64,000 nucleotides of DNA from Microbotryum violaceum. Lineage: Eukaryota. Shown here in pieces: positions 15,739-63,177 of this stretch. The notes below the pieces were generated by a model. That model did no database searches. It worked only from the letters and a program-made list of their open reading frames with translations, and had not been told where the DNA came from. Position numbers and translations under genes: made by a program. Numbering within the stretch: the first letter of the stretch is position 1; each line of letters opens with the position of its first letter. The DNA lies in NCBI GenBank assembly GCA_001244265.2, contig CDLV01000004.1, positions 434,001 through 498,000 of the forward strand, read 5' to 3'.

Positions 15739-16443
15739 CTAGGGATGGTTTAGCGCATTTGTTGACTGTAGATTATTTGTTATTGAAGAACTTTGCTTTT
15801 TGTATGCGGCCCATATCACACATGGTAGAATGTGGACGCCAGTGCACAAAAGTAAAATGGATGTCAGCCTTAATGAGGCGTTGACGCGTTGACGACCACG
15901 ATCCCACGAGCCGGTCGCCACGGCCACACTCACCGAACTGCAGTACGTGACAAGCTTGAAGGTTCTGCTAAGTTGAAAACTAAAAATTGGTGCGCATCGG
16001 TGCTGACATTTGCAGGTTCAGGTTTGGGAACGTTGCCAGAGGGGGCGGGGGGCGGTGAGGATTGGTGTTGCTGTAGTTGTTCTGTTCCAACAGCACCCCG
16101 AAGTGGGTCCAGACGCGTCCAACGGCGCTCCGTTGTACAGTGCTTGCGATAATATGTCAGCAAAAATCAATGAAATACGTCACCGCATACCTACTCCGTT
16201 GACGTGATAGTTTATGTAGTCGGATATTGGTCCATCGGCCAAGGACATTGTAGGGGCTGTGTACTCCCGGGGTACACATACACAGAGTCGGCGCGCGACA
16301 AGAGTGTAACCCCGGGGGACCCGGCCTGTGCCGCCGACAAAGCTGTGTACTCCCGGGGTGCCAAGCCGGTCACCGGTGGCAGATCACTGTATAATAACAT
16401 GTCCGATTCTACAACGGCAGGAGGTTAATCCTTTCGGTAAGTT

Positions 16444-16876
16444 CAGACACTTCCTGGGCTTTTAGCGGGAGCGTGGAAGTTTGTTGTAGTGCAGTTTCGC
16501 TCTGCTCGGTAGTTCGAACGGAGATTCAGTTAGGGAGTGCGTTGGCCTTGCGGGCTTTTCAGAGTGCAAGTCGGATGTAGCAAACAAATCTTTCGTCGGT
16601 CTTGTCGCAGGAGGGTATCCCGTTCAGTAACTGAAGACACATCCTCAGCTTCGAACGGGTGCGTGGAAGATTGTTCTAGTACAGTTTCGCTCTGCTCGGT
16701 GGTTCGAACGGAGATTCAGCTAGAGAAGTGCATTGGCCTTGCGGGCTTTTCAGAGTGCAAGTCGGATGTAGCAAACGAATATTTCGTCGGTTTCGTCGCA
16801 GGCGGGTGTTCCAGTCAGTAACTGCAGACACATCCTGAACTCTGAACGGATGCGTGGAAGTTTGTTGTAGTGCAGT
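16444..16876. repeat. ~190-bp tandem repeat, ~2.3 diverged copies
   Basis: GCGTGGAAG..TGTT.TAGT recurs at 16471, 16661 and 16852. Confidence 0.85.
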
Positions 16877-17249
16877 CAGCAAGGACGTCGGCGACGGACC
16901 GCGCCTGAGCCGTGGAACCCCGGGAGTACACAGCTGGAGAGGGCACCGGTCATGTGTACCTCCGGGGGTACACACCGCCACGCCGGTTGTACAGTGCTTG
17001 TTAAGAGTGTCCTAGAATTGATGAAGCATGTCGTCGCATACCGCTTCCTCGTTTCCGAAGGCGCAGGACTCTGTTCTAGTGTATCTACGCCCTGCCCTAA
17101 GGTTTAAGATTGAACTAGAATTTCCCCCTTCGGAGTGCATTGTACCTCGGAGTGAATCATGATTGCAGAGCAGGATCTCCATTAACACAACATACAAGCT
17201 AGACAGCTACACACGCTCACGGAAAATTCGGGATGGTCATCGCCTAACC

Positions 17250-18718: not shown

Positions 18719-19908
18719 GTTGGAACTTGGAGTGGGGGTGAGGGGTGAGATCGGTGAGAGGGAAAGAGCAGTGTCCCAATGTGTACCCCCGGGGGTACAC
18801 GTCGCGCCTCGCGTCACCTCACGTCACCACAGCATCACCGACACCGAGCGCGTCGGACCTATATGGAAGCTTGCAGTGTATGCAAGCGACTCGGCCAACA
18901 ACGAGCTTTGCTACTACGAAGTCATTGACGCCTCAGCACCAAGCTGCCACTATATCGATGCCGAGTTTACGCGCCCTTCCATTGACAATTCAGCAGAAAA
19001 GGCATTGATTACGCGTAATGCAGCGTCGTATTTCCCTGGCACATATGGTCAGCTAGCCAGCTCGGACACCTTGCGATCTTGCGTCTGCAGGTCAGAACTG
19101 CTGAACTACTTTGTTCCCTGCTTCTGTTTTATATCTATTGTTCCAGCGTCAACGAATAATCTCGGCTTTCATTCTCACCGCGGGCACACCGTTTGGAGAA
19201 CCCAACGCGAAGCGTGTTATTACGGACATTCTCGACAGCTTGAAGGTTCTGCTCTCACTTCGCCGGCGTCTCGGGGGTCCGAAGGGGTAGTCGGAGAAAT
19301 TTGGGTGCTTTGCTGTTGTCACCCCCAAGCTCTGGGGCGAGCTTAACTGCAGTTTGACATTAGGTAGGATGCGTGAGTGCTTTATTTGGACATCCATTAA
19401 ATGCCTGAATTGAATGTCCGGAGTAAAGTCTAAAACGTTAGGCGTCAGTAAATCTGAGCTTGGTAGAGGGATGGTGTACCATTGCTCCCCCTCCTCGCAC
19501 ACTCTGGCACGGTGCACCTCTCTGGGTGTCCCACGAGCCGTGAAGCTTAGCTAATCGTGGTTAGAGTTATTCTTATAGACGATGCCAATCTTCCTATACC
19601 AATGTTCCCAAGAGTCGAATTCGGAACCGAAATGCGATATAGCTGTTGTACCCAATACCGCCTGCTGACAAGATGGAGGATACAACCAATGCACAGGTAA
19701 GACAGCTACTGTATTGACCTTCTGCCCCCCCTCCCTCCTAATTTTCTGTTTCTCTTCACTCACTACTTACTACCCCTGTTTTTTTCTTTAATTCAACAGC
19801 AGTACAACCATAGCAATACCTAAAAACCTGGGGAAAGTCGGAGCGAATGCAGTTGAGCACACTGACTAGTAGGCCAGCTTCGGAGCTTCGGATCTCGAAG
19901 ATGGGAGT

Positions 19909-22900
19909 AATAACAGACTGACGAGCGTGTAATCCAACCGTCAGTTAATTGCATATGATAGTAGCCGTAGTGCTAGATGTACGTACCTGACGAGCGTGTA
20001 ATCCAACCGTGGAGAGAAGACAACGGTTGGTGCGCATCGCCAGGCTTCACTAAACAAACGCGCGCTTCTAATCAAATAACCGAAAGCCGCCTTCCTGCTA
20101 ATCCTCATTCACAACACGCCAACTCGCCCCTTCACGCGATGAATCTATAAGCCCCATCGCGTGTACAAACTGATAGTGCTTCTGTGTCCCGAGCCCCTTG
20201 GTGAGGACGTCCGCAGCCATGGTGCCCGTGGGCACCCAGACCATCTCGATCGTGCCTTCCGCGATGTGGTCCCGGATGAAGTGAAAGTGGATGCCAATAT
20301 GTTTGGTACGAGCATGGAAAGCCGGGTGCTTGGCCAGAGTGATGGCGGACTGGTTGTCACCCCGCAAACGAGTCGGAGCGGTCTGCTCGAAGCCAAGATC
20401 CGCAAGCAAACGACGTAACCAAATCCCCTCGCGAGCGGCGTATGACATGGCCACATACTCGGCCTCGGTACTGGAGAGGGTGACGAGAGTCTGTCGCTTG
20501 GCAACCCAAGAGATAGCCCCACCAGCGCACATGAACACGTAGCCCGAGACGCTCCGGCGAGTGACCGGGTCGGCGCCATGATCAGCATCGACGAATCCCT
20601 CCAAGATTGCCGACATAGGCTGGAAGGACTTCTGATAGCGGATGCCAAAATTGCGGGTACCGACAAGGTAGCGCAGGATGTGTTTGAGCGCCTCCCAATG
20701 CTCCGCCGTGAAGTCGTTGCAGAAACGAGCAGCCTTTGAAACGGCGAACGCGATGTCGGGTCGGGTGGTGCCAGAGAGGTATAAGAGCTTGCCTACAATG
20801 GCGCGATAGGGGATCGAGGCAGTATCAAAACCGGAGTCAGCGCGATTCCTCAGAGTCGACGGAGCCGCGAGAGGCGTGGGGCGGGGGAGGCATTGGCCAT
20901 GTGGTGTTCCTCGAGGATGGCATCGACGAAATGTCCCTGGTTGACAATCGCAGCACCCGTCTTGCCCTCACGACGGATGCTCTGGCCGAGGAAGAAGGAA
21001 GCCTCGTCGGTGCTGCGAGCTTCGAACCGAGCCTTGAGCTGACAGAGCACGCCGTCGAGATCCCCGTCACCCGTGAGCAGACCGTCGTCGACATGAATGG
21101 AGAGGAAAGACCGTCGATCCCCCTCTTTGCGAACGAAAACGGCATGGTCACTGTTGGTGCAGGTGAAGCCAATGGACAGGATCCATTCAGTGAAGACCTT
21201 GTACCACTCGCGGCCCGCCTGAACGAGGCCGTAGAGAGCGCGCTGCAAGCGCACGATATCGCCTCCGGGTAGTCGCATGTAGATCTCGGTCCCGCCGAGG
21301 TTACCGTTGAGGTACGCAGACGAGACGTCGAACTGGCGGGTCTCCCACTCGTTCTCGACGGCGAGGGCGAGTAACAGTCGATGAGAGGCGGCTCGACCTG
21401 TGGGCGAGAACGAATTGATGTGCACCCCCGACGTCTTTGCATGTCCCCGCGCGCAACAAGTCGAGCTTTGTACTTGACAATTTGACCCTCCGCATTGCGC
21501 TTGACGAGGAGCACCCACATGCTCCCGATGACAATGGCCCCGGGCGGGGGTCGAACCGGCTTGGAGAACGCGTTCTTAGCGGCGAGAGCTCCCTCCTCCA
21601 CCGACATGGCGGCCAGCCAGTAATCACGAAAGGGGCCAGCGAGGGCGGCCTGGACCGAAGGAGTGTCATCGCTGTCGATCTTGGCGAGGAGCGCAGAGAC
21701 TTCCTCAAACAAGTACATCTGCGTGTCAGGGTCACCTTCATCGAAGTCATCGAACTGGATGGCTGCGTGGTCGGCAAACTCCCAATGCTGTGCCGCGTGA
21801 GCAAATCCGAGGTAGTCAGGCGGACGGCGGGTCCGGGTGGAGCGATCACCATCGGGCGGTGCGTTTGCCGGACCAGGGTTCGAAAATGCGAGGGCGGGCG
21901 GAACGGGTGGCGGAGCGGCGGCAGCGGGAGCCACGGCCGGCGCTTCGGCGACAGGGGGCGCAGCGGCGGAACCGATGCCGAGCGGCGCGGGCGGGTAAGA
22001 CAAACCGACCGCAACAGGGATGGCAGGCATGGCAGGGCTCACCGCAGGGGGAAGAAACGGTCCTCAAAGAACCCGGCCTGAGACGACTCAAAGACCTTGT
22101 TGCGAACCGGATCGAAGAAGCGCCAGGCCTTGGATCGCGAGGAGTAGCCAACAAAGTAGCAAAGGCGGGATCACGGGGCCAGCTTGTTGGGACGTTGCTC
22201 GGGGGCGAGCGGCACGTGAGCGGCACAGCCCCAGGTCTTGACACGGTCGAGGCGGGGGCGGCGGGTGTCCGTGACCGGGTCCGAGGGTTCGTGCAGCACA
22301 GAGTCTGGGGTGCGCTGCTGGAGCGGCGACGAGGGGAGCAGATTTATGACGTAGATCGCGGCGTGCGCCGCTTCATCCCAAAGTGCGGGAGGCAGTCCGA
22401 GCGATGGAGCCAGGCGCGAACGGAGTTGAAGATCGTTCGCCAGCTGCGTTCCTGAACGCCCATCTGGCCGTGCTCGTACGCTGTGGAGAGCTCGTGGAAA
22501 ATGCCCCGCACGGCGAGCCAATCCCGGAGCCTGTGGTTCACAAACTTGCCCCCTCTGTCCGTGCGCAGCGTCGTGACGCCCTGGCCCCCATACTGGGTCT
22601 TCAACATCGCAACAAAATCCTGAAGGACGGCTGACAAGTCACTCTTGAGCCGGATGCTGCGAGCCCAGCGGAAGCGCGAAGACTCGTCCGTGATGCCGCA
22701 GAGGTAACGAGCACCCGAAAGTGCGGGCACAGGGGAAGGACCCCACATGTCGGCAAAGACACGGGAGAAAGGTGCGTCCGCGGGGTGGCTCGCGGGTTCC
22801 CGGTTCGGGGAAGAGACGGTTTTGCCGGCGCAACAAGCATCGCACTGATCGAGGAGGCGAATCTGATCCGGAGTTACAGCTGCTACATCGAGTGGAATTT

Positions 22901-24880
22901 GACCCGACCTAACAAGCTCTACCAAACGACCCCAAGAAGGATGACCCAAGCGCTGATGCCAAAGCACTACGTCTGTAGGCAAGGTGGTGGCAGTCAGCGC
23001 CAGGTGATCCGCCCGAGGAGGTGGGTGAGAACTTGCCTGAAGCACGTAGTGGTTGCGATTGAGGGCGAAGGAAAGGCGGGAGGTCGCGCTCGAGATCGCG
23101 GTCCCGGTATGTTTCCCAGCCGCGTCGCACTCGTTGGATAGCTCATACCCGTCCTTCATCAGGCCGGCGAGTGAGACGAGTTCAGCGGACAGACCGGGGA
23201 CGAGGAGGACGTCATGGAGCTCGATGGACGCTTCGTCGACACCGAACCGGAGAGTGCCCGTACCGGTCGCCATGGCACTGGAGTTGAAGGCGCCGACGAC
23301 CCGGACGCGCTCCGTGGTGAAGGGCTTGAAGTCGATGAGGAGGTCCCGGCGAGTCGTCATGTGGCGGGTCACACCCGAATCAAGCAAGTAGCGCGGGATG
23401 TCGCTCAGGTACAGCGCCGTGTCGTCGTCACCAATGGGTACGCCGACGACCAAGTATCCCTCGTAGGCCTCGTCCTTGAGCTGAGCCTCGGGTGCACGGT
23501 CGACGGCGACGAGCGCCATTACGTCGGCCACGCCAATGGTGATGTTGTGCTTGGCGAGAACAGCGATGCGGCGGCGAGAGACCTCTGCCGATGGCACCGT
23601 GCATTCGTCGCCAAGATGTCCCTGCTCGTAGCACCTTCTGCACTGCATCCGACCCAGTTTCAGGCGACCAGCGTGCGAGATCCCGTGAGGCCACCTCTCC
23701 TTGAGGCCGGGCACCCTCGAGGCCTGAAGGAAGGGGGGCGCCGAGGGACCGGAAGGACGGCCCGAGGGTTTCGAGCGAGGACGACCCGAGGCTGGCTGAC
23801 TCCGAGACTGCACCCGTGCCGCTAATGCCTCCGCGATGGGCTCGATCTGCCGGCTCGAGGAAAGTGCGGCCCTACGTATCGCGCCCTCAACTTGCTCGAG
23901 CGATGGGAGCGTGCCGATGGAGTCGATGACCGTCACGAGGTTCCTCGGCATCCTAGCCTTCAAGAGGTCCATGCGAACGCCCTCGGACAGCGCGGGCGCT
24001 GGTACCCACTTGTCGAAATCGCTCTGGGTAAACGATGTGCCGTCGATCCTGGCGCGTTGATAGGCTTTGTCACGGGAGACGTGGGCGGCGACGAGGTCCT
24101 CAAACAACCGGTTGAAGTTCGCAAGCCATGGGTCGAGCGCTTCGCCGTCGACAAATGGCTCACACAAGAAGAGGGCGTCGAGCTTCGCTGAGCGCATGAA
24201 ATCGTCCGAAGCGCGACCGAGATCCTTATCGAGCGCGGCCCACAAGTCGTGCGTGGCGTTGGCTTTGACGCGGGCGAAGGTGGACTCCCCCAAGCATACG
24301 ATTAGCGTGTTGCGCGCCTGCGCAAGGGCCTGATCGAGAGCGTCGACATCCTGACGGTACAATCGAAGTTGGTTGCGATAGGTGGCCACATCGTCTACCC
24401 GGTTGTCGCCCTCCAAGCGAGTGAACTCGGACTGCAAAGGCTCGGGGCCGACGTCTAGAACACCGGTGACGTGCTTGAGGCGGCCCTCGCCTTTCAGGAC
24501 GTTCTGAAGTCGCTCCCTGGCAACACCCCAGTTGGTGGCGTCGACTTTGCCGTATAGGTCGCCCATCAGACTGACGTGGTCAGCCGTGGGAGTCGCCATC
24601 TTGGATATGCGCTGCGTCTTTTCTGCGTGCGGATCTGTGCCTTGCGGCAATACAGACGCTACCAAATAACAGACTGACGAGCGTGTAATCCAACCGTCAG
24701 TTAATTGCATATGATAGTAGCCGTAGTGCTAGATGTACGTACCTGACGAGCGTGTAATCCAACCGTGGAGAGAAGACAACGGTTGGTGCGCATCGCCAGG
24801 CTTCACTAAACAAACGCGCGCTTCTAATCAAATAACCGAAAGCCGCCTTCCTGCTAATCCTCATTCACAACACGCCAACT
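19909..24880 (-). mobile_element. Full-length Ty1/Copia LTR retrotransposon (family A)
   Basis: 216-bp LTRs at 19909-20124 and 24665-24880, identical by eye; TSD GGAGT (19904-19908 and 24881-24885); PBS TGGTAGCG (tRNA-iMet 3' end type); PPT GTGAAGGGGCG; domain order gag-PR-INT-RT-RH. Confidence 0.96.
20098..24599 (-). CDS. Copia gag-pol polyprotein (several frameshifts)
   Basis: [14 protein letters not shown] knuckle, [10 protein letters not shown] protease, [52 protein letters not shown]. Confidence 0.92.
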
Positions 24881-27800
24881 GGAGTTTCCTTTTGCCAAGT
24901 CATCTTGGGCCCTACTGGGTCTTAAGGGTATTAATGGTGGGACCAAAAGCTGACTGGTCACTTGCTGTGAAGTGTATTAGATATATATAAAATGTGGCTC
25001 ACGGTTCGCTCCCGCACTTTGAAGCTTTGACCTTGGCCCAAGCACGTGCACATCGACGCGTCGACGCACACTGGGTGACTAAATGCTCCTCAAATTGAGT
25101 CGGACCAGGTTCATGATTGGTCCCACTTCTTTTTTCATGTTCCTGTTCTTGTTCTTTTGCAATGATTGAGTGGGGGCGATCTTACACCTTGTCCAAACAC
25201 GACCTCATCGCTGTCTCTCGCGCCTCGCATCTTAACCAATGATCATTTTGTGATTGTTCCGCATCTCGATAGTTGACACAAAGCACACAAGGGGACCACA
25301 CCGGTGATATTTCCGGTAGGACGTCTCAGAATTTGGGTGTGTAGCTCATCATTCTCTCATCACCTGATTGTGTCCTATTCTCTGAAGTGCGACTTGACTT
25401 CTGACAAATCGCACTTTTCACAATGCATGCATGACCAGGGACTTCTCGCTTGACCCTCAGCTGCGCACCCAACGCAGCATCGGACAGTGCAGTAGAAGGC
25501 TATGGGCAAATTGATGGGAAGTGCAATACAGAGGGCGACTGATAAATCTCAGGTTCTATCTGCCATGTGGAAACCCGAGTATTCAAGACGATTTCGATCG
25601 CAATGTTGACCACCGGTGGATTTTCCCCGCGCCGGGTACCCTGACTCAAAAACCTAGTCACTTTCAGTGCCATTACAGTACGATCTGGTGATGACCCTCG
25701 TTCTTAAAAAGATGATTTCAAGCAAAAAAAAAACCGAGGAGACCGATTGAGATACCACCAGAACTGTCATCTGTAAAGGCTGCGTTGGTCGACAGTAGAA
25801 ACAGTCGGAGGCCAGCAATAGCTCGCAGGCCACTCGTGCACTCTGATGCGAGGAGGAATGGTAGGGTACGAAGAACAACATTGTGATCCTGACTCAGTGA
25901 TGTTCGTTCAGGTGTATACACCCCACTTTTATGTCCATAGCTAACTCTGAGCTTCCGCCTTTACGATGTAACAGTAGTACATGTACCGGTGAGAGCACGC
26001 AACAGATCGGGTCACACGGCAGAGAGCACATGAAAGGCGCAGGTGTGATTGGCATCAAAGTCACCTTTTTCTCAGCACCGGGACAGATATCATTGATATA
26101 TTGTCAAACTCATTCCTCGTTATCAAACTAGAATGAGTTCAATTGTACACGAACATCCCGTCAGGGGTATTAAGTGCGTCGTCATGTATCTGAAATGTCG
26201 AGAGTCGATAATGTCGACGCAAACGTACAACTGTCTAAGTGGCTGTGTGGCTTAAAGTGGCCAAGACAACAGCATTGAAAAGCACCGAAAAACAGATCGA
26301 GTATGGGACCAGATTAGCCTTCGTTCGAGAACACATTAGAGTGTTGGGGTAAATGGAGTCTGATAAGTAGCAATGTGATCTCTGCTGAGATCTCAGGAAG
26401 TATCAACAAAGACCTGGCACGGACTTCGGGCATCTGACTGGCCTGACTGCGCACGCTATAAACACCAAACGCAATGGCGGAAATTTGAAAGCGCACTAAC
26501 TAAGCGCAGCCAAGAAGAATGCCCGCTTATCTTATCGCCAGCAGCAGAGAGCTTTCCTTCTGGATCTCTAGCTGACCTGTTGGACCTCCCGCTGTCGGCA
26601 CTACTGCTGGGCAGTAACCTTTTCAAGCGGGCTAGAGCGCATTTAAGCGGTAGCCAACCCCTGTCAGCGTTGGTTGCTTCTCGGTCCTATGGTTGCTACT
26701 TTGCATTCCCTGCACTTCCGAGGGAAGGGCAATATTGTAAGACATGAAGAGACACTAGTCAATGAAAAGGCAAAAGCACGCGAGCGCTCGCATCATCTGT
26801 TTGGATTGAGGCTTTTGGAACAAGAGCCTTCGATTCCAGACAGCCATTAAACATTTCCCAAGTTTCGTCATCACTGCCATCATCTTCCGCATTGAACTCC
26901 CACTCCTCAAGCACAAATGCACCGTTGTCTGTGGCGTCGATAGAGTAATGACTCAAATCGTCGCTCAATTGATCACTCATGTCAAAGTCAACTCCTTCGT
27001 TCGTGTTGTCGTCCGTCTCATCAATCGTGTCACCAGGGCTGCGGGCAAACGAAGTTAGGCCATCCGCTGTCGTTTGCTGAAAAAGTTCAGCGTCGTCGGT
27101 ACACCAAAGCCGAAGCGCCACGCACCCCTCCATCGGTTGTTCGCCCGTGCCTTGGGTGCACTGCCACAGGTAGTAATCAAGGCTCGGGATCGATGGCTCC
27201 GATGAAGGAGGGCTCCGAGTCGGCCGACGTGTCGGACGCGGCCTCGTTGGGTTGCCGTGAATACTGTGCTACTCGGGATCCGGTCGCATCCGCTATTTCG
27301 ATTTCTCGAGGCTAATAGAAGTCGTAGCGGCAGTAAGTTCTGGACTCGGGCGTCTCGACGACGAGTCATTCCCGGCGGCCACGAGAGGAGGGAGGCTAAA
27401 GCCGGCTTACGGGAGGGAGAGGAAGAGGATGTGATTTCGAGGGGGCCTTCACTTTTGCGCCGCAAAGACTCGGAAAATGACGAGCAATGGTGGGATCGGT
27501 AAGGCAGCATTTGGAAGGAAGACCGAGCCCGATATGCGGAGGTTACAGTGAAGGGGAATGAACAGAAAGCAGCCGTTTGAACTGCCGGGACTTTTGAGGG
27601 GAGTTTTCTTCTTGTTTTCAGGAAAACTTTCCAGGATCCAATACGATATTTTTCTTGTCTCTCACTTTTTGCGTGTTTCAAGTCTCGTTTGGCATCGTCT
27701 CCAGCCTCCGTCCTCAGCGTTTCGTTCTCGAACTCGGCCTCGCTTCTCGATTCTACCCCACTGCAGTCTCTCGTGTCTCTCGCCTTGGTGTCTTAAAAGC

Positions 27801-28625: not shown

Positions 28626-28666
28626 TGTTGTGGGAAATTAGTGGGGTCTGCGGTCCAGAGGGACTT
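28626..28666 (+). repeat. 41-bp 5' end of a family-B Copia LTR
   Basis: Identical to 48610-48650 (TGTTGTGGGAAATTAGTGGGGTCTGCGGTCCAGAGGGACTT). Confidence 0.85.
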
Positions 28667-28827: not shown

Positions 28828-31000
28828 CTAGTGGGAACCCGTTAAATTAACGGGAGGATGATATTCAAAAAATAGCAGGATAATCGAACAGTCTACATGA
28901 TTTCAGCGCAGAGGTTAAGAAAACATGGGTTGTACAGCAAAGAAACAAAATCCATTCATCACCGAAACAGCCTGGCCGTTGCTTGTTGCCGGACTTGGCT
29001 TTGAGCCCTCGTGCAATGAGGTCCGGACGGTTGTATGCTTTGTCGTTCGGCCCCAGTGCAGCCTTGATTTCCGGCCATTCGGGGTTGCACGTCACCGTGA
29101 TGAACAGCGAAGGCTTCCCGTATTTGACGACACACGCCATCGCATCTTGGTAACGCTGCGTGACCTCCCGCGGGCTATTCTTGAACGTCGACCCCAATAT
29201 CACCGAACGTCCAATCTGATCCGGGGTCAAACCTTTGGCAACGGCGTCGGTGATGCCCTGCGCCGTGGTTAGGCGCAGGTTCTCTTGATGAAAGCGGATA
29301 TAGTTAAGTCGATCGGTCTCGACTTGGGAGTATCCGTAAGTGACAAAGTCGAGGAGGAGACGCTGGGTGGCATGTGGGATTGAGAAGTAGTCGCCGCGTT
29401 CGTGCAAGTAGTATGCAAGATATTCGTCGTCTCCTTGATGATCGTCCTAGATGTTCGAGCATTCTATGTGAGTCTGTGCTTACATCTCAACAGAAAGGAA
29501 CATATGAGAAAGAGCGGAAGACGCTTACGTTCACCATCACCATTCTCTTCGTCCCCTCCTCGCCGTCTTCATCCTCATCGTCGCGGTCTTCGTCCTCCTG
29601 TTCGTCTTCTTCATCTGGACCAAGGCCGTCAAGTAGCTCGCGCAATTGGACACCATTGTCGATCTGCTCTCGGTTTCTGGCGATGGGCGGCCCAGCTTGG
29701 TTGAAACCGCAAAGAGGAATGTTGGGGTGGAAGCCATCTTCCCCGCGGGAAGAGTAGTGGGTACCGGAGAGGCATCGCAGACGGATGGAGCGAGCTAACG
29801 ATTTGGTACTTGGGCCGACCATCGGGACATCGATCACCGTGCACCTGGAGAATAAGGTCTTGCGGTCCACGATCCCCGTGTTGGTGTCGGAATCGCAGAT
29901 AAGCATCGCCATTTCCGTGCTTGACGTAGGAAGGTTGTGGGTGCGTCGGTCTCGGCCTGGTGGTAGGCAGAGGCGCAGGATCATCCACTCTTTGGCCGTA
30001 TCTCAACCTGCGCGAGGTTTGGCCGATGCGAACTCCCTCACAAAGCGATTGCCGGTGCGCAGGATGGACTCGAGCTTGGTCAAAGTAGATCGTCGCATGC
30101 GACTGTCTGCGCCGTCGGGTCCAAGTCGAGTGTCGGTGGCCTCGGCCGGGTCGATCAGCCATGTTTGAGCAAAGGCTGGGCGTTGATTCACGGCAGGGAT
30201 CAGGGCGCCGAGTCGATGGTAAAGACGACCGAACACGCGAAACACGGGAGGTCCTAGAGTGTCCACTTGAGTTTGGTCCCAGTGGGCAGCGAGCGAAGTA
30301 AAGGACAGTGCGTTATTGTAAGACCGGGCATCCTCGCGAAATGCTTTAGCGTCTGTGTAGGTGCATCGCACAGTTCAGCATGTGGGCCATACTGCAGAGA
30401 GATGTTGTTGGACGGAGCAACTGACCGCTATCCGAGCCTTGAAGAAGCTGCCGATACTCGAGATTGGGCTGGGGAGGGGGAGGTAGCCAGCCGCACCTTG
30501 CCCTGCGAGCAGCACGCGCTGAAGTGTCTGGTCGACTTCGACCTTTCGCACTCCCAGTGCCGAGCCTTGCAGTGGGTGCACACGGCCGTCTGGGGGCCGA
30601 GGTCGTCGCGGATCGAAACGTGGGCTTGAAGGGTTTGAGCGCGTTTCGAGCCCGGCGCACTCGCCTTCGCGGAGGAGGTGGTGGTGGGGCGAGCCCAGCG
30701 TCGAGTTGGCCATCGCGCTGACCACGCTGTCCGTTCTGCACAGCTGCACGGCGGGCTCGTATACGTGTCGCAATGCCAAGATCGGTTGCATTGTTGTCAT
30801 GACGCGCGGGGGGCTGATTCTGTTGATCGGAGCGGGACGAAGAGGAGGGTCGAGCCGCGGGGCGCCCAGCAGCGGGCGCTCGAGCAGGCCCATGGTACGG
30901 CGCTACCCTCGCGCCCAAGACTTGGCGAGGTTGCGATGGCCCTCCCTGGCGACCTTGGGACCGGGGCATTACACAGAAGCGAAGGTTTGTTCTTGAATGA
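28828..31000 (-). mobile_element. Internally deleted Helitron (RepHel N-terminal part plus 3' end); 5' boundary approximate
   Basis: YNNALSFTSL, YHRLGAL and DAMACVVKYGKPSLFITVTCNPEWPEI motifs; 3' hairpin CCCGTTAA-N-TTAACGGG (28838-28854) then CTAG; lacks the HUH motif and helicase. Confidence 0.88.
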
Positions 31001-34500: not shown

Positions 34501-36392
34501 CGCGAGGAAAACGGCGCTTGCACCTCGGATTACCGTACTTGTCCTTCTCCATGCAGGGCTGAGTCGAGTTTCCGCCACACTTGCCATGCAGCATGTGCTT
34601 TGTAACGGTCTCGTGGAGATCAGGATAGCGCGAAGGATCGGGTATCTCGGTCGAGATCATCTTGTCGATCGCTTCCGTCGACGAAGGATGATCGTCCGGC
34701 GCGAGGGTGATGAGGATATGGGCATGTGGCAGGCCCCGCTTCTGATACTCAATCACATGTGTATGCGTCAGAACCACGCCAAAACAGCCTGCACGTTGCT
34801 TGTTGCCAAAAACGTCGTCGCAGAGTCGGTTCAGCTTGGCCTCAAACACTCGTGCAATGAGATCCGGACGGTTGCATGCTTTGTCGTTCGGCCCCAGTGC
34901 AGCCTTGATTTCCGGCCATTCGGGGTTGCACGTCACCGTGATGAACAGCGAAGGCTTTCCATATTTGACGACGCAAGCCATCGCATCTTGGTAACGCTGC
35001 GTGATCTCGCGCGGGCTATTCTTGAACGTCGAGCCCAAAATCACCGAACGTCCAATTTGATCCGGGGTCAGGCCGTTGGCAACAGCGTCGGTGATGCCTT
35101 GGGCCGTGGTGAGGCGCAGACTTTCTTGATGCAACCGGATGTAGTTGAGTCGATCGGTCTCGACTTGGGAGTATCCGTCAATCACGAACTCGAGGAAGAG
35201 ACGCTGGGTGGCATGCGGAATGGAGAAGTAGTCGTCGCGTTCGTGCAAGTGATATGCAAAGTATTGGGAACGCGAAACTCGGGTTGATCCACCTCGACCC
35301 CTCTTGTTTGATCTTCGTCCTAGATTTTCGAATAATTTATGTCAGTCTGAGGGTGCGTCTCAACAGAGAGGTATATGAGAATGAGCCGAAGACGCTTAAC
35401 TTACGTTCACCATCACCATTCTCTTCGTCCTCCTCGTCGCCTTCATCCTCATCGTCCTCCTCTTTGTCTTCTTCATCTGGACCAAGGCCGTCAAGTAGCT
35501 CGCGCAATTGGACACCATTGTCGATCTGCTCTCAGTTTCTGGCGATGGGCGGCCCAGCTTGGTTGAAACCGCAAAGAGGAATGTTGGGGTGGAAGCCATC
35601 TTCCCCCGCGGGGAAGATTAGTGGGGTACCGGAGAGGCATCGCAGACGGATGGAGCGAGCTAACGATTTGGTACTTGGGCCGACCATCGGGACATCGATC
35701 ACCGTGCACCTGGAGAATAAGGTCTTGCGGTCCACGATCCCCGTGTTGGTGTCGGAATCGCAGATAAGCATCGCCATTTCCGTGCTTGACGTAGGAAGGT
35801 TGTGGGTGCGTCGGTCTCGGCCTGGTGGTAGGCAGAGGCGCAGGATCATCCACTCTTTGGCCGTATCTCAACCTGCGCGAGGTTTGGCCGATGCGAACTC
35901 CCTCACAAAGCGATTGCCGGTGCGCAGGATGGACTCGAGCTTGGTCAAAGTAGATCGTCGCATGCGACTGTCTGCGCCGTCGGGTCCAAGTCGAGTGTCG
36001 GTGGCCTCGGCCGGGTCGATCAGCCATGTCTGGGCAAAGGCTGGGCGTTGATTCACGGCAGGGATCAGGGCGCCGAGTCGATGGTAGAGGCGACCAAACA
36101 CGCGAAACACGGGGGGTCCTAGCGTGCCCACTTGAGTTTGGTCCCAGAGGGCAGCGAGCGAAGTGAACGACAACGCGTTGTTGTACGACCGGGCATTCTC
36201 GCGGAATGCAACCGCTTCTGTGTGGGTGGGTAGAACAGTTCAGCATGTGGGTCTACTGCAGACGAACGTTGTTGGACGGAGCAACTGACCGCTATCCGAG
36301 CCTTGAAGAAGCTGCCGATACTCGAGATTGGGCTGGGGAGGGGGAGGTAGCCAGCCGCACCTTGCCCTGCGAGCAGCACGCGCTGAAGTGTC
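31552..36392 (-). mobile_element. Helitron encoding RepHel (HUH Rep plus PIF1 helicase), 5'-truncated
   Basis: ORF 32660-35248: VIEYQKRGLPHAHIL, KYLFKYVYKG, APGGTGKT, IIWDEAPM; ORF 31729-32343: AMTINKAQGQSL, HGQLYVALSRA; same 3' hairpin followed by CTGG|T. Confidence 0.95.
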
Positions 36393-37144
36393 GTACGTCA
36401 TCGTGATGAGCAGCGGAGGCTTTCCATGTTTGACAACGCACGCCATCGCATCCTGGTATCGCTGCGTGATGTCGCGCGGTCTATTCTCGAACGTCGAGCC
36501 CAAAGTCATCAAACGTCCAATTGGGTTCGGGGCCAAGCCGTTGATGCCTTGGGTCGTGGTGAGGTATAGGTTCTCTTGATGCAACCGGATGTGTAGAGTC
36601 GATCGGTCTCGACTTGCAGTATATTCATAAATCACAGACTCCAGGAAGGGACCGTGGGTGCAATGCGGGATTGAGAAGTACTCGTCGCCTTTGGCAAGTA
36701 GTGCGCAAAGAATTGTGAACGCGAGACTCGCCACCTCGACCCCTTTACTGGACCTTTGTCCTAGGTGTTCAAAAGTTCAATGTCAGTCTGTGCTTGCGCC
36801 TTAAACAGAATGGAACATCAGAGAAAGAGCCGAAGACGCATACGTTCACCATCACCATTCTCTTCGTCCCCCGCCGTCTTCATCCTCATCGTCACAGTCT
36901 TCGTCCTCCTCTTCGCCTTCGTCAGCAAGACCGAGACCGGCAAGTACCTCCCGCGATTGGACACCTTTGCCGATCTGCTCTCGGTTTCTGGTGATTGGCA
37001 GCCCAGCTTAGCAAAGCCCGCAAAGAGAAATGTTGGGGTGGGACCCATCTTCCCCTGCAGGAAATAGTAGTGGCTACCGGAGAGGCAAGGCAGACGGATG
37101 GAGTGAGCTGATGACTTGGTACTTGGGCCGACCATCGGGACATC
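36393..37144 (-). mobile_element. Degenerate Helitron Rep fragment
   Basis: Diverged paralog of ~34930-35700 (QRYQDAMACVVKHGKPPLLITMT). Confidence 0.8.
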
Positions 37145-41703: not shown

Positions 41704-44700
41704 AATCCCAAACGTGTCTTTTGTTGCTGCCAACGTGCAGTCAATCAATGAAGACCGTAAGCGTGCCTCTCTTTTCTCCAATCTCCGCTCCCATAACGCC
41801 GACGTCTTTCTCCTGAGCGAAACTGGCCGACCTTCCCCGAAAGGGTGGCCCAGTGGACTCAGGAGTGCCAAGACTTAAAGCTCTCCGCTCTTTTCACTCC
41901 TTTCAACAACACTGCCATACTTTGGAAGAGCGACTCCGTGGTCATGACTTTGGATCCCGAGTCGCCTCCAAACACTCTTCGTGCCTCTTTCTCTTTCCCG
42001 GACCGAGTCACCGACGCCACCTTTTGTGTGGGTGATTCAAAAGTCCGGGTTGTATCAATATACGCGCCTTCCTCCGACAAGCCAGACAAAAAACGCTTCC
42101 TCTCACACCTCAGCACCGCCCCGACAAGTTGTACGTGACGAACCCTCGCCGCCTGCGCTCCTAGTCGGGGGGACTGGAATTGTGTTGAGTCCCAGCCCCT
42201 CGATTCGGAGAACCAAAACAGAACGAATTATGGGGGTCAGGAGATGCGCGACTTTGCCACGGCCAACAATCTTTTCGACGCCTATCGGCTCCATCATCCC
42301 AAAGGACGAGCCACGACGAATCGCTCAGCGCCCGGCACGTGCCGTCGCCTTGACCGCATCTATGTCTCGCCTGATTGGGTCGACCTCTTCCATGATCACA
42401 AAATTTGGGCTCCTGTCCTCAAACCGACGCACTCAATGGTTGTGGCACGGTTCCAAGTGCCGGGCGCAATTGACATCGGTCCGGGCAAATTCAAGCTGGG
42501 TTTGCACGTGATCGAGGGCGACGCGACCTGCGAGTACCTCACCTCCATTGTCCGCACCCTTTACAACAAAGCCCTCCTCCAGACGCCCAACGATCCACCA
42601 GCAGCTTGAACGTCCACCAAACACCGCCTGCTGCCCGAGCTGCAGGCTCTGGCCCGGACTTTCGCTCGGTTCCGTCGTGGCGGGTCGGAGCAAGAGAGGG
42701 CTGACCACTCGCGCTACGGCGCGGCCCTGCGGTCCCGCCTCGACCCATCTCTGGCGGGTCCCTCTTCCATCTTCATCCGCCTGCGCAAAGTGCGAGCATC
42801 CGACCTGATCCCTTCGCTCACGGTCAACGATGTTGTTCATTCCGACCCTGATTCGATGCTTGGAGCGGCCAGCGACTACTTCGAGCGGGTCTATGAGGAC
42901 CGCCCCATCGATGACGCGGCCCTGACGGCCTCGCTCCAACTCGCCTCTTCCCGCGGACTCATTCAAGCTCGAGGAAGCGTACCCGTTGGAGGAGATGACA
43001 AAGGCTCAAAGAGGCGTGTAAGTCGAACTGTTTGCCAGAGCCTGACAGCCTCCCGGTTGAGTTCTATCGCGCTACGTGGCCGGCCACTGGCCCAATTCTT
43101 CGAGACGTCATCAACTCGATCCCCACCGAGGCCCGTCAGCCTGGACCTCTTCCCCGCAACACCGCCCACATCCATCTCATCCACAAATGCGGCGAGAGGG
43201 ATCAGCTCTCGAACAAACACCCCATATCGCTTATCAATGCAGACAAGCGCATCATCTCGCAAGCCCACAACCAGCGCCTCGCTCCCCTGCTCGAGTCCCT
43301 GATTGGCCCAACCCAACGTGGCTTTGCTCCGAACCGTTGGATCGGCACGAACATTGCTGAGGTCCAATGTTTCATGGACCCTGGACTTCCAGGCTCAACA
43401 CCCGTGTCTGGCATGCTAGCGGTGATGGACTTTGAAAAGGCTTACGATCGTCTTTCCCACCCGTACCTTGATGCATTCCTCTGCGCCGTTGGCCTCGGCC
43501 CCAAAGCCCGCCAATGGTACCGAGCGACCTACACCAACCAATCCGCTTCGATCTTCCTCAACGGTTGGCTCTCTTCCACTTTCGACATCCTGTCGGGCAT
43601 TCGGCAAGGTGATCCTTTGGCTCCGTCTCTCTTCGTCCTGGCGATCGAAGGTTTTGCCTGTCAGATTCGATTCAGAGTCAAGGGCATCGATATTGCGGGC
43701 CTCCAAAACGTTCGCGAACTCCTTTTTGCCGACGACGCTTGCTGCGCACTCCACAACCTCTCGGACCTCGACCACCTCAATCGGGCGATCGAGCTTTACG
43801 AACGGGCAAGTGCCAGCAAGCTCAGCAACGTCAAATCTTTCCTCTACCCCCTTGGAGCTTTTCGGGATCGGTCGATCGCCCCAGATCGGGACCTGGCGTC
43901 TCAGCGATTCGCAGTTTCGCTACCTTGGTATTCAGGTCGGGGTGGAGATCGCCGAGGATGCGGGCTGGGAAGATGTCAAGGCCTTGACCATCGCTCGGAT
44001 ACGCTCGATTCCGATGTACGATCTCCCATATGCAGCCAAGTGTTCGATCATCAACATCTACTGCTACACAAAGATCTTGTACTACAGTCGATTCCTTCCC
44101 GCCCCAAGAGCGTTGTCAAGGAGATCGAGGAGGCCGCCATGCTCGCCATTCACGGTCGAGCTTCGGATGGTACTCAGCGACGTCCGAAGGTCTCCCGGTC
44201 ACGCCTCTGCACCCCTCTTGATCACGGCGGCTTCGGTTTGTTTGATTGATCTGCCTCGGCGTCTAGCAATTGATCACGCGAAGTGGGTCTTCCAGCTCCA
44301 GGCCCCGGACGGCTGCTTCACACGCCACCTCTTCGACATCCGCATCCGCCTCCAGGCACCAAACGAACCAACCCCTTTCACCTTGTCCAGACCGGCCCCC
44401 AACCAGCATCGTTGCCCTTGGATTTGGATCTGGTAGGCTTACTTTTGCCATCCTCCCCCAAAGTGGGACCATGCGGTGAGAAAAACGACAAAACTTCTTC
44501 CTGCTCGTTGGGTCCGATACTTCGAAGCATGGGCGTTGGTGACCACGCTCAATCCCCCGGAACTCTCCAAGAGCCAGAACCTCGAGCAATGGGCGACGCA
44601 CGTACTCTATTTCCCAGCGGGCCACGGAATACAACTCTCGGTAAACCCGACGCTTTTTCGAGGGCCGATGGCGAGGTGATGACCCCGTCTTCGTTTGTGA

Positions 44701-45245
44701 ACGCGTCCAAACGCCACCAAGTCTTCATCTTCCCCCTTATCTTCCCCAAGGGACACCAGAAGGTATTCGATCTGCCTGAGCAACGCTGGAACGCTTGGTG
44801 GAAGGCTTTGCGCAAGGTTCGCCGGGTTCACTCGGACGCCGAGGATACCGGCCACCTTCTCTCCCTGGGGTCCCTCCATCCGGGAAGCCAAGTCGCCTCC
44901 CCAACCAGCCCACATCCCAACAATCGATCTACCTCCTGTGTGATGTGCCTCTCGGAAGCACCCGAGTGCCTGGTTCACCTCGCGGTCGGCTGCCCATTTG
45001 CCCGGCGCCTCTGGTCTGCTCTGTCCCCGACCCCCCACCCAGTCTTTGTGGACTTTGTATGCCCGGTCGTGTCTCGCTCGAAACGTCGACTTGTCGAACT
45101 ACGAGTCCTCTTCTTTCACTCGATCTGGAAGCTCTGTCGCCGTCGTCGATTCTCGTCGGATCTTTTGGAACCGATCACCGAAACGGAGTTCGAGGGGCTT
45201 CGAGCCTCTATCCAGGAGTCCAAGGGTCGCCTAGTGTCTCTGTAA
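41690..45245 (+). CDS. LINE ORF2: AP endonuclease, reverse transcriptase, C-terminal zinc motif (multiple frameshifts)
   Basis: ANVQSIN, DVFLLSET, SIYAP, RLDRIYVS, DFEKAYDRLSH, GIRQGDPLAPSLF, LFADD, CVMC..ECLVHLAVGCPFARRLW. Confidence 0.92.
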
Positions 45246-48609: not shown

Positions 48610-53483
<4,874 letters not shown>

Positions 53484-53929
53484 GGTTATGAGCCTAATGA
53501 GCAATACATCAGCAAAATGGCCACGCACGCAAACCCGCTTAAGGATTCGCCCAAGATTACGCGCGCTTAACGGTGCATAAGATGTGCATAAGGACGCATA
53601 CGCGCGTGGCTGAATTGGGCAAACCTCATAATCCACGCATAGCCAGCGCTGCAATGACTCGCCCTGCTTAAGGATCGCTTAACGCGCGCTTAACGTTTGA
53701 CCTTGCTTACATTTCGCATACGTAACTGCAAAGCCTGTACTTGCACACAAGCGGGCGGATTGCTTTCTTGACCCCAACAAGTTTCTGTGCTAAAATCCCA
53801 TCAAAAGGCGCTTCACTTGATTTTATTTGATGAGGCTAAGGAGCATATATTCAGGAAGTAGTTGGTCCATATAACACCGTGATTTCTACAAAAATAACTT
53901 TCCAGTAAAATCTATGCATCCGCCACTGG

Positions 53930-56113: not shown

Positions 56114-60881
<4,768 letters not shown>

Positions 60882-61497
60882 GGAATGTTGTGGCGGTGTC
60901 GACAAGCCCAGCCCACTCGGGATGGTCGAGCACCAATATGATCACTCCCTCGTCGTTTTCGAACATTTTCACATGAGGAACACAGAACGGCAGATAGCCT
61001 TTAGTGTTTCCAGGTGCGTAATGAGGTATGCTGATGATCGAGCAGATCAAGCACGAAGCGAGGCCTCTTGCTCCCACAAGGTTTCCAAGGGCTGCTTGCT
61101 CCAGCGTGTCGGCTATGCAAGCCATAATCCTGTCTCTGCAAAGCACGTGCCTGTCCCGAGCGGCTGAAAAGGATGTGCGCTCCCCTTCGAAGATGTGAAG
61201 CCGTTGACAGAATGTTTTGAGGAATGACTGCTCGTCTTTGGGTTTCTGAGGGCCGTTCACAGAGATGACAAAGTGCGATGATAGCTTCCAACAAAGTTCG
61301 GGGGGCAGGGTCATGGGTATCACCCTGGAGATGTGGGCGTTGACCTTGCGATTGGCGTTGGAGTGCGTGAGCACTTCGGTTCCATCGGAGAAGGTTGCAA
61401 GAGGGATGTCATCCGGCTTGAGATCGCCGTTTGCGTAAAGCGTCCGTGCGTGTAAGCCGTCAACCCATTGCCTCACGAACGGGTAAGAGCCCGAGCC

Positions 61498-61890
61498 TGT
61501 TGTGGGAAATTAGTAAAGGGTCAGCGGTCCAGAGGGACTTGTGGCATTGGGAAGTTGGCGCGCGCGTGGCGCGGCGCCGGCCGGATGGAGGCAGATGGCG
61601 GTGTGGCGTATTGATTGGACTCAAAGGTGGCTTGCACGCGGATACTATCTAAGGCTCTGGTCTCGTTCACTCTCTCCTTCTTCTTTAACACACACTCAAT
61701 ATCTATCCCGCCCATTCGCCTGCTACAAGTTGGTTGACCTTGGCAATACTCTATCTCACAATAGGTTAGTTGTAATACATTTAAACACACACTCGATATC
61801 TATCTCGCCCATTCGCCTGCTACAAGTTGATTGACCTTGGCGATACTCTATCTCACAATAGGTCATCTATCAACCCCGTGTAGCTACATC
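61498..61890 (+). mobile_element. Solo or truncated LTR of a related Copia family (C)
   Basis: Starts TGTTGTGGGAAATTAGT; same layout as family-B LTRs but diverged; 3' boundary and TSD unclear. Confidence 0.8.
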
Positions 61891-63177
61891 GAATCTTCAT
61901 TCATTCATTGGTACTCCAAGTCCAAATCCACAACAGAGCCACCTGACACCTTGTGCAAGTCGACGACGTCGTTGCTCGGCTTGGCATTGGCGAGGGTCGG
62001 GCCAATTACTGGGTGTGCACGAAGCGCTTCAACAAAAGGGGCGGGGTCATAAAAACGCTGCGTTGACCGTGCAATCTTCTCGCCATTCTTCCCCAGCGTG
62101 AAACGGTTCTCGCGGCACCCGGGCGTTGGACACTCCTCAAGATCTTCGAGCCGTTTGGCGCCATAGGACACCTGTTTTTTTTTTGAGTTTTTGTCCTGAT
62201 CCCTTTTACGATAATCAGGACAAAAAGCTTAAAAAAAAGAGGGCCTTGAATGGTCTATATAGTCTAGGCTGCAGATTGTCTCATTTGTTCGCATGTGCCA
62301 TGAGAGTTCCCTAGCAATTCTCCCGATTTTTAGTAGCCCTATTAATAACGACATTACTCATTAAAAGGTTTCGTCTAAAGCAGATAACCATGGTATAAAA
62401 TACCTTTATCTACTAGCGCCTTTTTATTTTCTTTTTGTCTCAGACAAAAACGACAAAAACGACGCAACCTTTGGGGCACTTCCCGACCTCCACAGTTCTG
62501 AAGCCGGTGAGATATCGTATCGTTCGGACCATTTTGTACTCGGACATGTCGCTGAGGTCGGCGTTGTGGAAAGTGTAGGTGCGCAGCAATGTGAGGAGGT
62601 CAGTCCAAGCGTCTCTCGAAAGCGAATGGTCCCGCTTGAACATGTAAAGTTGTAGCTTTGCAAGGTCATGGGGTGGAAGCGTTCGACTTTGAAGTCCTGT
62701 ATGAGGTAGTTACAGCATCAGCCCTCGTGTTCGTGTCAAATACGACCACTTGAAGCACAGCAAAACTTTGAGTCACCTTCGGCACCAAGCTCGGCGAGAT
62801 GAGCCTCAAGCGCGGCAATCTCATCTTCAGTGGGCTCGGGCTCTTCTGCCCCCTTGGACATCCTCTTCCTCTCTTGCGCCTCTCAGGAAGTTCTCATCGC
62901 TTTGCGCTCCACCCGCATGGGAGTCCGTATCGCTGGTATCTCTGTCACTATCATGTTCCTCCTATTAGAACCTAAAGCCGAGGCACGAGATAAGTTTAGT
63001 ACGAGAGCCGAGGATGATAGTAAAGACAGTTGGAGAAAGAAGACAAGCGCAGAGTAGGAGCGCGCGAGGCAACTAATATCAACAACTAGTAACTAATCAT
63101 GATCGGTAATAGAAGTGGGATGAAACAGCAATATACACTCTGACAACATTAAGCGTAATGGAGCCCTGCCCAACACG

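Follow-up and report, generated by a model that had tools for sequence, protein, structure and literature searches.

We describe here a candidate self-regenerating intron in the long terminal repeats (LTRs) of a Ty1/copia retrotransposon, called family A below, which lies on the minus strand at positions 19909-24880 (4,972 bp) of a 64,000-nucleotide (nt) stretch of Microbotryum violaceum DNA (assembly GCA_001244265.2, contig CDLV01000004.1, positions 434,001 to 498,000; hereafter the window). In each LTR a 24-nt unit is present twice: the first copy is followed directly by a splice donor motif and the second ends in an acceptor motif. That this layout is real, non-random, conserved and homogenised we regard as virtually certain, and we consider it probable that the LTR segment is spliced. 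With a probability of roughly 0.45, we propose that the segment is a real spliceosomal leader intron inside the R region, which would be rebuilt by normal first-strand transfer; the component claim that spliced RNA itself is copied, with the intron thereby regenerated, we hold at slightly lower confidence. We infer the start site, the splicing, the position of polyadenylation and the use of spliced RNA as a template from sequence.

A candidate intron in the family A LTR

The element was delimited by its paired LTRs, Pfam domains and protein relatives. The 5' LTR (24665-24880, minus strand, 216 nt) and the 3' LTR (19909-20124) are identical at 216 of 216 positions, and a 5-bp target-site duplication, ACTCC, is read directly beside both (24881-24885, with its partner at 19904-19908), as in other Ty1/copia elements. 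Positions 24665 and 24880 are also the points where the DNA contigs of a public run diverge into several flanks, which together with the duplication confirms the LTR ends. The primer-binding site (PBS; 24657-24664), which begins TGGTAGCG and which we take to match the 3' end of initiator tRNA-Met, adjoins the 5' LTR, and a polypurine tract (20125-20133) stands directly ahead of the 3' LTR; no tRNA gene was found within the window. The likely gag start codon (24597-24599, context AAGATGG) is where the gene models P0001 and P0005 begin. The first open reading frame (ORF), of 751 residues, contains Pol_BBD, gag_pre-integrs and rve, and the reverse transcriptase and RNase H motifs lie downstream in shifted frames, which places integrase ahead of reverse transcriptase, the Ty1/copia gene order. 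The closest proteins are gene models of Microbotryum, a genus of anther-smut fungi, with 97, 95, 83 and 59% identity, which places the window in that genus; those at 95-97% carry RVT_2 (PF07727). Overall, the LTRs, target-site duplication and domains support the copia-type identity proposed in an earlier annotation made from the DNA letters alone (the sequence-only reading), and family A resembles Ty1/copia elements (Pseudoviridae) in its LTRs, 5-bp duplication, putative PBS beside the 5' LTR, polypurine tract and protease-integrase-reverse transcriptase order. Its LTRs start with AGTTGG and end with TTATT (AG..TT), in place of the TG...CA termini that are usual in Ty1/copia but not strictly required.

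Each LTR contains, in order, a pyrimidine tract, the 24-nt unit, a 45-nt spacer, the unit again and 9 nt, followed at the 5' LTR by the PBS. In the 5' LTR the pyrimidine-rich tract (24767-24780) lies immediately ahead of copy 1 (24743-24766), the putative exon 1 and R; in fungi, pyrimidine tracts precede transcription start sites, and we take this one as the putative start-site context. Downstream are the unique spacer (24698-24742, 60% A+T, starting GTACGT and ending AACTG), copy 2 (24674-24697), an exact duplicate of copy 1 that ends in CAG at the acceptor, and a U5-like tail of 9 nt, TCTGTTATT (24665-24673), with TGGTAGCG continuing from 24664. The layout is the same in the 3' LTR, where the copies occupy 20010-19987 and 19941-19918. 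The coordinates that the sequence-only reading had given all hold on the minus strand, and the exact duplicate that it placed in both LTRs was confirmed: the 24-mer occurs four times in the window, two per LTR, with no mismatches, against a chance expectation of 0.00 (100 shuffles). No further occurrence with up to three mismatches was found in the window, and the only other short-range repeats there belong to unrelated tandem arrays.

The putative intron (24674-24742) is 69 nt long. The fungal intron consensus comprises a GTNNGT donor, CTRAY 10-40 nt before the acceptor, a YAG acceptor and a length of about 50-100 nt; the LTR segment agrees with it, since it opens with GTACGT, has CTGAC as its branch motif with 23 nt following the A, closes with CAG and is of fitting length. 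The splice motifs first proposed for it are thus present in the sequence. The spacer also contains an ATG (24710-24708) that lies upstream of gag and shares its reading frame. The sequence-only reading had further stressed that the duplicate starts at the branch A. This is true of family A but is not repeated in families B and L001 (described below), so the coincidence of the branch A with the first base of copy 2 is probably incidental. A scan for promoters and terminators gave no match, the models being bacterial and not relevant to this element.

The same layout in three further LTR families

The layout is not unique to family A, since we found it in three more LTR families, two of them (B and B') in the window. 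Family B is a second copia family, whose 80-nt unit ends in AATAG and follows a pyrimidine tract. The 5' LTR of one element, B2 (60507-60881, minus strand), has two units (60728-60649 and 60631-60552) with a 17-nt spacer starting GTTAGT, and its 3' LTR (56114-56392) has one (56238-56159); an ATTCC target duplication flanks the element on either side. The 5' LTR of a second element, B1 (48610-49082, plus strand), has three units (48764-48843, 48861-48940 and 48958-49037), so that unit number across family B LTRs ranges from 1 to 3. Family B', a diverged relative of B, is represented by a solo LTR (61497-61925, plus strand) with target-site duplication GAGCC and two 78-nt units (61687-61764 and 61784-61861), again with a spacer starting GTTAGT.

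The third family, L001, came from metagenome contigs that were scanned with a pol alignment. The scan returned 80 copia loci, among which L001 is the closest (43% pol identity to B2), with an intact gag-pol of 1,447 codons; a scan of viral contigs gave one distant match only. In its LTR a long pyrimidine tract leads into a unit of 42 nt that ends in ATAG; next come a spacer of 20 nt beginning GTTAGT, the 42-nt unit again and 11 nt, followed by the PBS. The spacer/unit junction forms an upstream ATG. A similar pyrimidine tract lies ahead of the first unit in B, B' and L001. The intron-like segments measure 69 nt in A, 97 nt in B and B', and 62 nt in L001, all within the usual size of fungal introns; those of B, B' and L001 have a GTTAGT donor, a TAG acceptor and weaker branch motifs than family A. 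Unlike family A, the LTRs of these three families start with TG and end with CA.

With a single family A element in the window, the duplication could be taken for a recent neutral event in one element, of no consequence. This explanation we consider close to excluded and already contradicted: the duplication is present in both LTRs, the gene model P0003, a relative with 83% protein identity, keeps the spacer end and copy 2, and the layout is found again in the three other families.

As a control, exact repeats of at least 16 nt with a period of 20-300 were collected on both strands of the 80 copia loci. Out of 134 such short-range repeats, two end in AG with GT next, and both are the L001 LTR copies; a canonical donor hexamer and a YAG at the exact unit edges occur in 4/4 families and in 0/132 other repeats of the control loci. 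Non-overlapping repeats of at least 18 nt were present in one of 25 copia 5'-LTR ends (L001) and in 0/24 others, the limits of these ends being approximate, as set by self-alignment and PBS motifs.

These counts bear on the possibility that nothing is spliced, and that the units are tandem repeats in R produced by out-of-register or premature first-strand transfer, with the GT and AG at their edges incidental. Direct repeats are gained and lost during retroviral reverse transcription; the repeat begins at the expected RNA 5' end, as template-switch products do, copy number in family B varies, and the joined form of the LTR was not seen in the contigs compared (see below). Incidental edges are, however, difficult to reconcile with splice motifs in all four families and in none of the control repeats, nor is an arrangement of unit, unique spacer and unit a plain tandem duplication. 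Taking also the conserved junction described next into account, we consider this explanation quite unlikely.

Homogenised units and a conserved donor junction

The two units are identical between copies in family A (24/24), L001 (42/42) and B (80/80). Unit identity is 99-100% within B, 95% within the old B' solo LTR and 75-81% between B and B'; the four differences between the B' units are all transitions, three of them at CpG. The units of B and L001 are unalignable, as 358/500 shuffles score equally well, and their spacers are weakly similar (10/500 shuffles). Units identical within families and diverged between them are what is expected of an R region, and on these comparisons the two units are evidently homogenised by a recurrent process, like the retroviral R region. 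The spacer, by contrast, appears to be inherited.

When the whole LTRs of B and L001 are compared, the sole match is an 11-nt stretch, ATAG+GTTAGTT, at the unit/spacer junction. This exon/donor junction thus appears to be the one LTR stretch held by selection, and the donor looks selected, which repeats without splicing would not explain. Spacers are A+T-richer than units in 4/4 families.

The homogenisation also bears on the possibility that transcription starts at copy 2, in which case R would be copy 2 alone, and copy 1 with the spacer would be a duplicated promoter-proximal piece of U3. The mature 5' end would be the same as after splicing, so present data fit both, and the upstream ATGs would likewise be avoided. 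Copy 1, passed on through the 3' LTR, and copy 2, passed on through the 5' LTR, should then drift apart, contrary to the observed unit identity. Moreover, the pyrimidine tract lies ahead of copy 1 and not of copy 2, spacers of 17-20 nt probably leave no room for a core promoter ahead of copy 2, and the conserved donor would have no explanation. We therefore regard a start at copy 2 as very unlikely.

A model for intron regeneration

In the model that we favour, the first nucleotide of copy 1, which adjoins the pyrimidine tract, would be the transcription start. The 24-nt unit would be exon 1, and the intron would consist of the 45-nt spacer and the second unit copy up to the acceptor. The spliced 5' end would then read unit, 9 nt and PBS, the same string as copy 2, 9 nt and PBS, and the terminal redundancy of the spliced RNA would be the unit, with U3, copy 1 and the spacer together acting as U3. 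Minus-strand strong-stop DNA would anneal at an unspliced 3' end, to the copy 2 that terminates it, and extension through the spacer, copy 1 and U3 would put the full intron back in every new LTR. An unspliced 5' end would lead to the same LTR product. Each spliced cycle would replace copy 2 by exon 1, so that the copies would stay identical.

Such a model would account for the exact extent of the duplicate, which begins at the putative start site and ends at the acceptor, for the identity of its copies, for the preservation of donor and acceptor, and for the presence of upstream ATGs in A+T-rich spacers (in A and L001).

A retroelement of this kind must treat its two ends differently, and in family A a predicted hairpin could contribute. 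The 8-bp stem that the sequence-only reading had noticed between the end of U3 and copy 1 (24786-24779 with 24766-24759) is real and statistically strong, and forms the core of a longer hairpin of 59 nt (24742-24800, minus strand), in which copy 1 over its full length and the initial G of the donor are paired with the end of U3 (-27.6 kcal/mol, z -4.49, 0/200 shuffles fold as well); the same fold is returned in a 146-nt context. The hairpin is possible only in RNA that contains U3. Its masking of copy 1 and the donor would be confined to the 3' LTR, where it would block splicing and mis-annealing. The pairing between U3 and donor is weaker in L001 (z -2.66, 4/200 shuffles in a 99-nt window; z -1.55 in a 141-nt window).

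In a broader and more speculative form, which we consider somewhat unlikely as a whole, a clade of fungal copia elements would replicate through, or tolerate, spliced genomic RNA. The A+T-rich spacer would carry the poly(A) signal, which in the 5' LTR would be silenced by splicing or by U1 binding at the free donor, and in family A the hairpin would hide the 3'-LTR donor, so that polyadenylation would win there.

The intron could instead be spliced for translation, while only unspliced RNA is packaged and copied, as happens in retroviruses; the duplicate would then have another role (branch and acceptor context, or strength of the start site), and occasional gain and loss of units would keep the copies alike. 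The donor, acceptor and length fit introns, the upstream ATGs fall in the removable part, and unit number in family B does vary from 1 to 3. Separate RNA pools for translation and replication are kept by plant copia elements (PMC3735527). This explanation does not account, however, for the exact span of the duplicate, whose limits are the putative start site and the acceptor. The homogenisation that it predicts would also be slow, which fits poorly with units that are fully identical within families (24/24, 42/42 and 80/80) although those of B and L001 cannot be aligned. For these reasons we think it unlikely.

Evidence from public sequence runs

Contigs of four public runs (X1, X6, X17 and X19) were compared, from a set of 24, none of which is on record as RNA. 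They identified a second family A intron, of 64 nt and of the GC-AG type, at the protease/integrase border (22973-23036, minus strand), with a GCAAGT donor, CTGAC 21 nt before the acceptor, and TACAG. The contigs of X17 and X19 contain the joined form (22972 to 23037), and those of X1 and X6 do not. Because this intron is joined, the host spliceosome probably acts on the family A element, and does so with the branch motif and spacing of the LTR candidate. Once the 64 nt are removed, the ORF stops one codon past the junction, giving 522 codons (Gag and protease). A counterpart of this intron was not found in L001.

Several observations weigh against regeneration from spliced RNA. The 69-nt skip (24743/24673 joint) is absent from the contigs of X1, X6 and X17, which have the two-copy form, and the X19 contigs have no LTR coverage; the X17 contig extends 46 nt into U3 and 3 nt into the PBS and is therefore either DNA or unspliced read-through RNA. 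In the gene model P0004, a 59% relative, residues resembling the pyrimidine tract run straight into those of the spacer end and copy 2, and this may reflect a relative with one copy. B2 has unequal LTRs, two units against one, within an intact target duplication, and no single reverse-transcription cycle of the model yields this. Exon 1 would be only 24 nt long, and branch motifs are less canonical in B and L001. The hairpin between U3 and donor is absent in B and B' (z +0.84 and +2.08), and copy 2 of family A folds on itself (CTGACG with CGTCAG), a predicted structure that could hide the branch site.

The contig result is not decisive, since contigs drop minor forms and carry no information on start, end or strand, the model expects the 3' copy to be unspliced, and a spliced 5' end has no diagnostic junction. 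The last point also concerns the check by split reads across 24743^24673 that the sequence-only reading had proposed. The joint was not in the contigs, and a spliced 5' end that starts at copy 1 would have a sequence indistinguishable from that of genomic copy 2, U5 and PBS, so split reads cannot show splicing in the 5' LTR; to reveal it in this way, an RNA must include U3. Likewise, a start site placed in such LTRs from mapped 5' ends and nothing else can be wrong. As for B2, its LTRs differ at five sites besides unit number, so later unit loss or conversion is possible; its lone 3' unit has the variant base of 5' unit 1.

Protein models were less informative. P0002-P0004 run through the LTRs, where predicted introns leave the copy-1 region unreadable, and a protein search with the leader and gag N-terminus returned a single protein that begins at the gag ATG and is uninformative on the form of the LTR.

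Relation to known systems

Retroelements are expected to lose introns that are spliced from the RNA to be copied, which is the basis of intron-based retrotransposition reporters and of the view that processed copies lack introns. If our model is true, strand transfer that rebuilds a promoter-proximal intron would be an exception to this rule. The element would gain intron-dependent expression or evade intron-sensing defences with its genome integrity kept. In the broader form of the model, the intron would be the first heritable one to survive the copying of spliced RNA, and an LTR element would have a new way to distinguish its two identical ends. Further cases could be surveyed by their signature: a unit at the start site, a donor, a spacer, the same unit ending in an acceptor, and the PBS.

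To our knowledge, no copia LTR with an intron inside R has been described. Literature searches on LTR and R-region introns and on Microbotryum retrotransposons returned, in the portions of the articles available, no description of an LTR or R intron or of its regeneration.

One related system is engineered. In split-intron retroviral vectors (Ismail et al. 2000, as described in PMC3182074), reverse transcription copies parts of the LTR and so places the donor for a leader intron of the provirus. As proposed for family A, LTR copying in reverse transcription yields a working leader intron, and the family A intron, if our model holds, would be a natural counterpart. Unlike family A, the vectors are man-made. 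They obtain their donor from the 3' LTR in a single copying event, their acceptor is not part of the LTR, and they neither duplicate the exon nor rebuild the intron from spliced RNA.

The 64-nt intron at the protease/integrase border of family A corresponds to a known strategy, as Drosophila copia also splices for a Gag-only RNA. Alternative splicing for a Gag-only RNA is described in the Arabidopsis copia element EVD (PMC5580714) and splicing for Gag RNA in barley BARE (PMC3735527). The introns of these elements differ from the LTR intron in lying in the coding region and in being lost if spliced RNA is copied. One heading in the Results of the EVD paper states that U1 small nuclear ribonucleoprotein restrains premature termination (PMC5580714), a theme that may, by analogy, offer a lead for the choice between splicing and polyadenylation in family A.

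The position of the family A donor also has parallels in retroviruses, as it would be transcribed in both LTRs and would need different handling at the two ends. Deltaretroviruses and foamy viruses have their major splice donor in R and are in the same situation, but their acceptor lies far downstream, outside the LTR, and their spliced RNAs are not genomes. Finally, the model of Rogers reportedly has introns born by tandem duplication of a segment that contains AGGT. As there, splicing from the GT of the first copy to the AG of the second would restore the unduplicated RNA. Unlike there, the copies stand apart with a unique spacer between them, the putative RNA 5' end coincides with the start of the unit, and the structure belongs to a replicating element and has persisted across deep divergence.

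Other features of the elements and the window

The integrase frame of family A is broken at about 22396-22401. DNA contigs of X1 and X6 carry an extra base at 22396 at full depth, and the break is therefore private to the copy in the window or an assembly error. Further frame breaks are present in the pol of this element.

B2 (56114-60881, minus strand) has gag and pol ORFs that look intact, and B1, apart from its downstream LTR, is 98.8% identical to it. In both elements gag, whose frame includes the protease DTG motif, and pol are read in different frames that share about 490 nt. A pattern search found no intron that would fuse the overlapping frames of B2, so a programmed frameshift may be possible in B1 and B2. 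The gag ATG lies inside the PBS (GGTTATGAG...) in family B (49083-49094 and 60506-60495) and in L001 (1425-1436), presumably the half-tRNA primer type of Drosophila copia. Downstream of B1, the LTR at 53196-53497 is followed by a PBS remnant; its identity to the B1 5' LTR is about 90%, and CpG transitions are numerous among the differences. This LTR seems to be what is left of a tandem or recombined array, hypermutated in patches, and with this PBS remnant and hypermutation we rejected the difference of three units against one in B1 as evidence. Copia abundance and CpG hypermutation in Microbotryum are treated in a published source (PMC4469406).

A further family B LTR is cut off after its first 41 nt (28626-28666) by another insertion with long repeats at 28994-30528 and 34835-37144. 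Retrotransposon pieces make up most repeat families of the window. Of the ORFs tested at 40-48 kb, none was recognised as a host gene, and the only matches were to RVT_1 and, weakly, to zf-RVT; the ORFs at 42999-45242 (plus strand), with a non-LTR RVT_1 and the weak zf-RVT match, point to an element of the LINE (long interspersed nuclear element) type. A tandem array of units of about 190 nt, unrelated to the LTR families, occupies 16417-16917.

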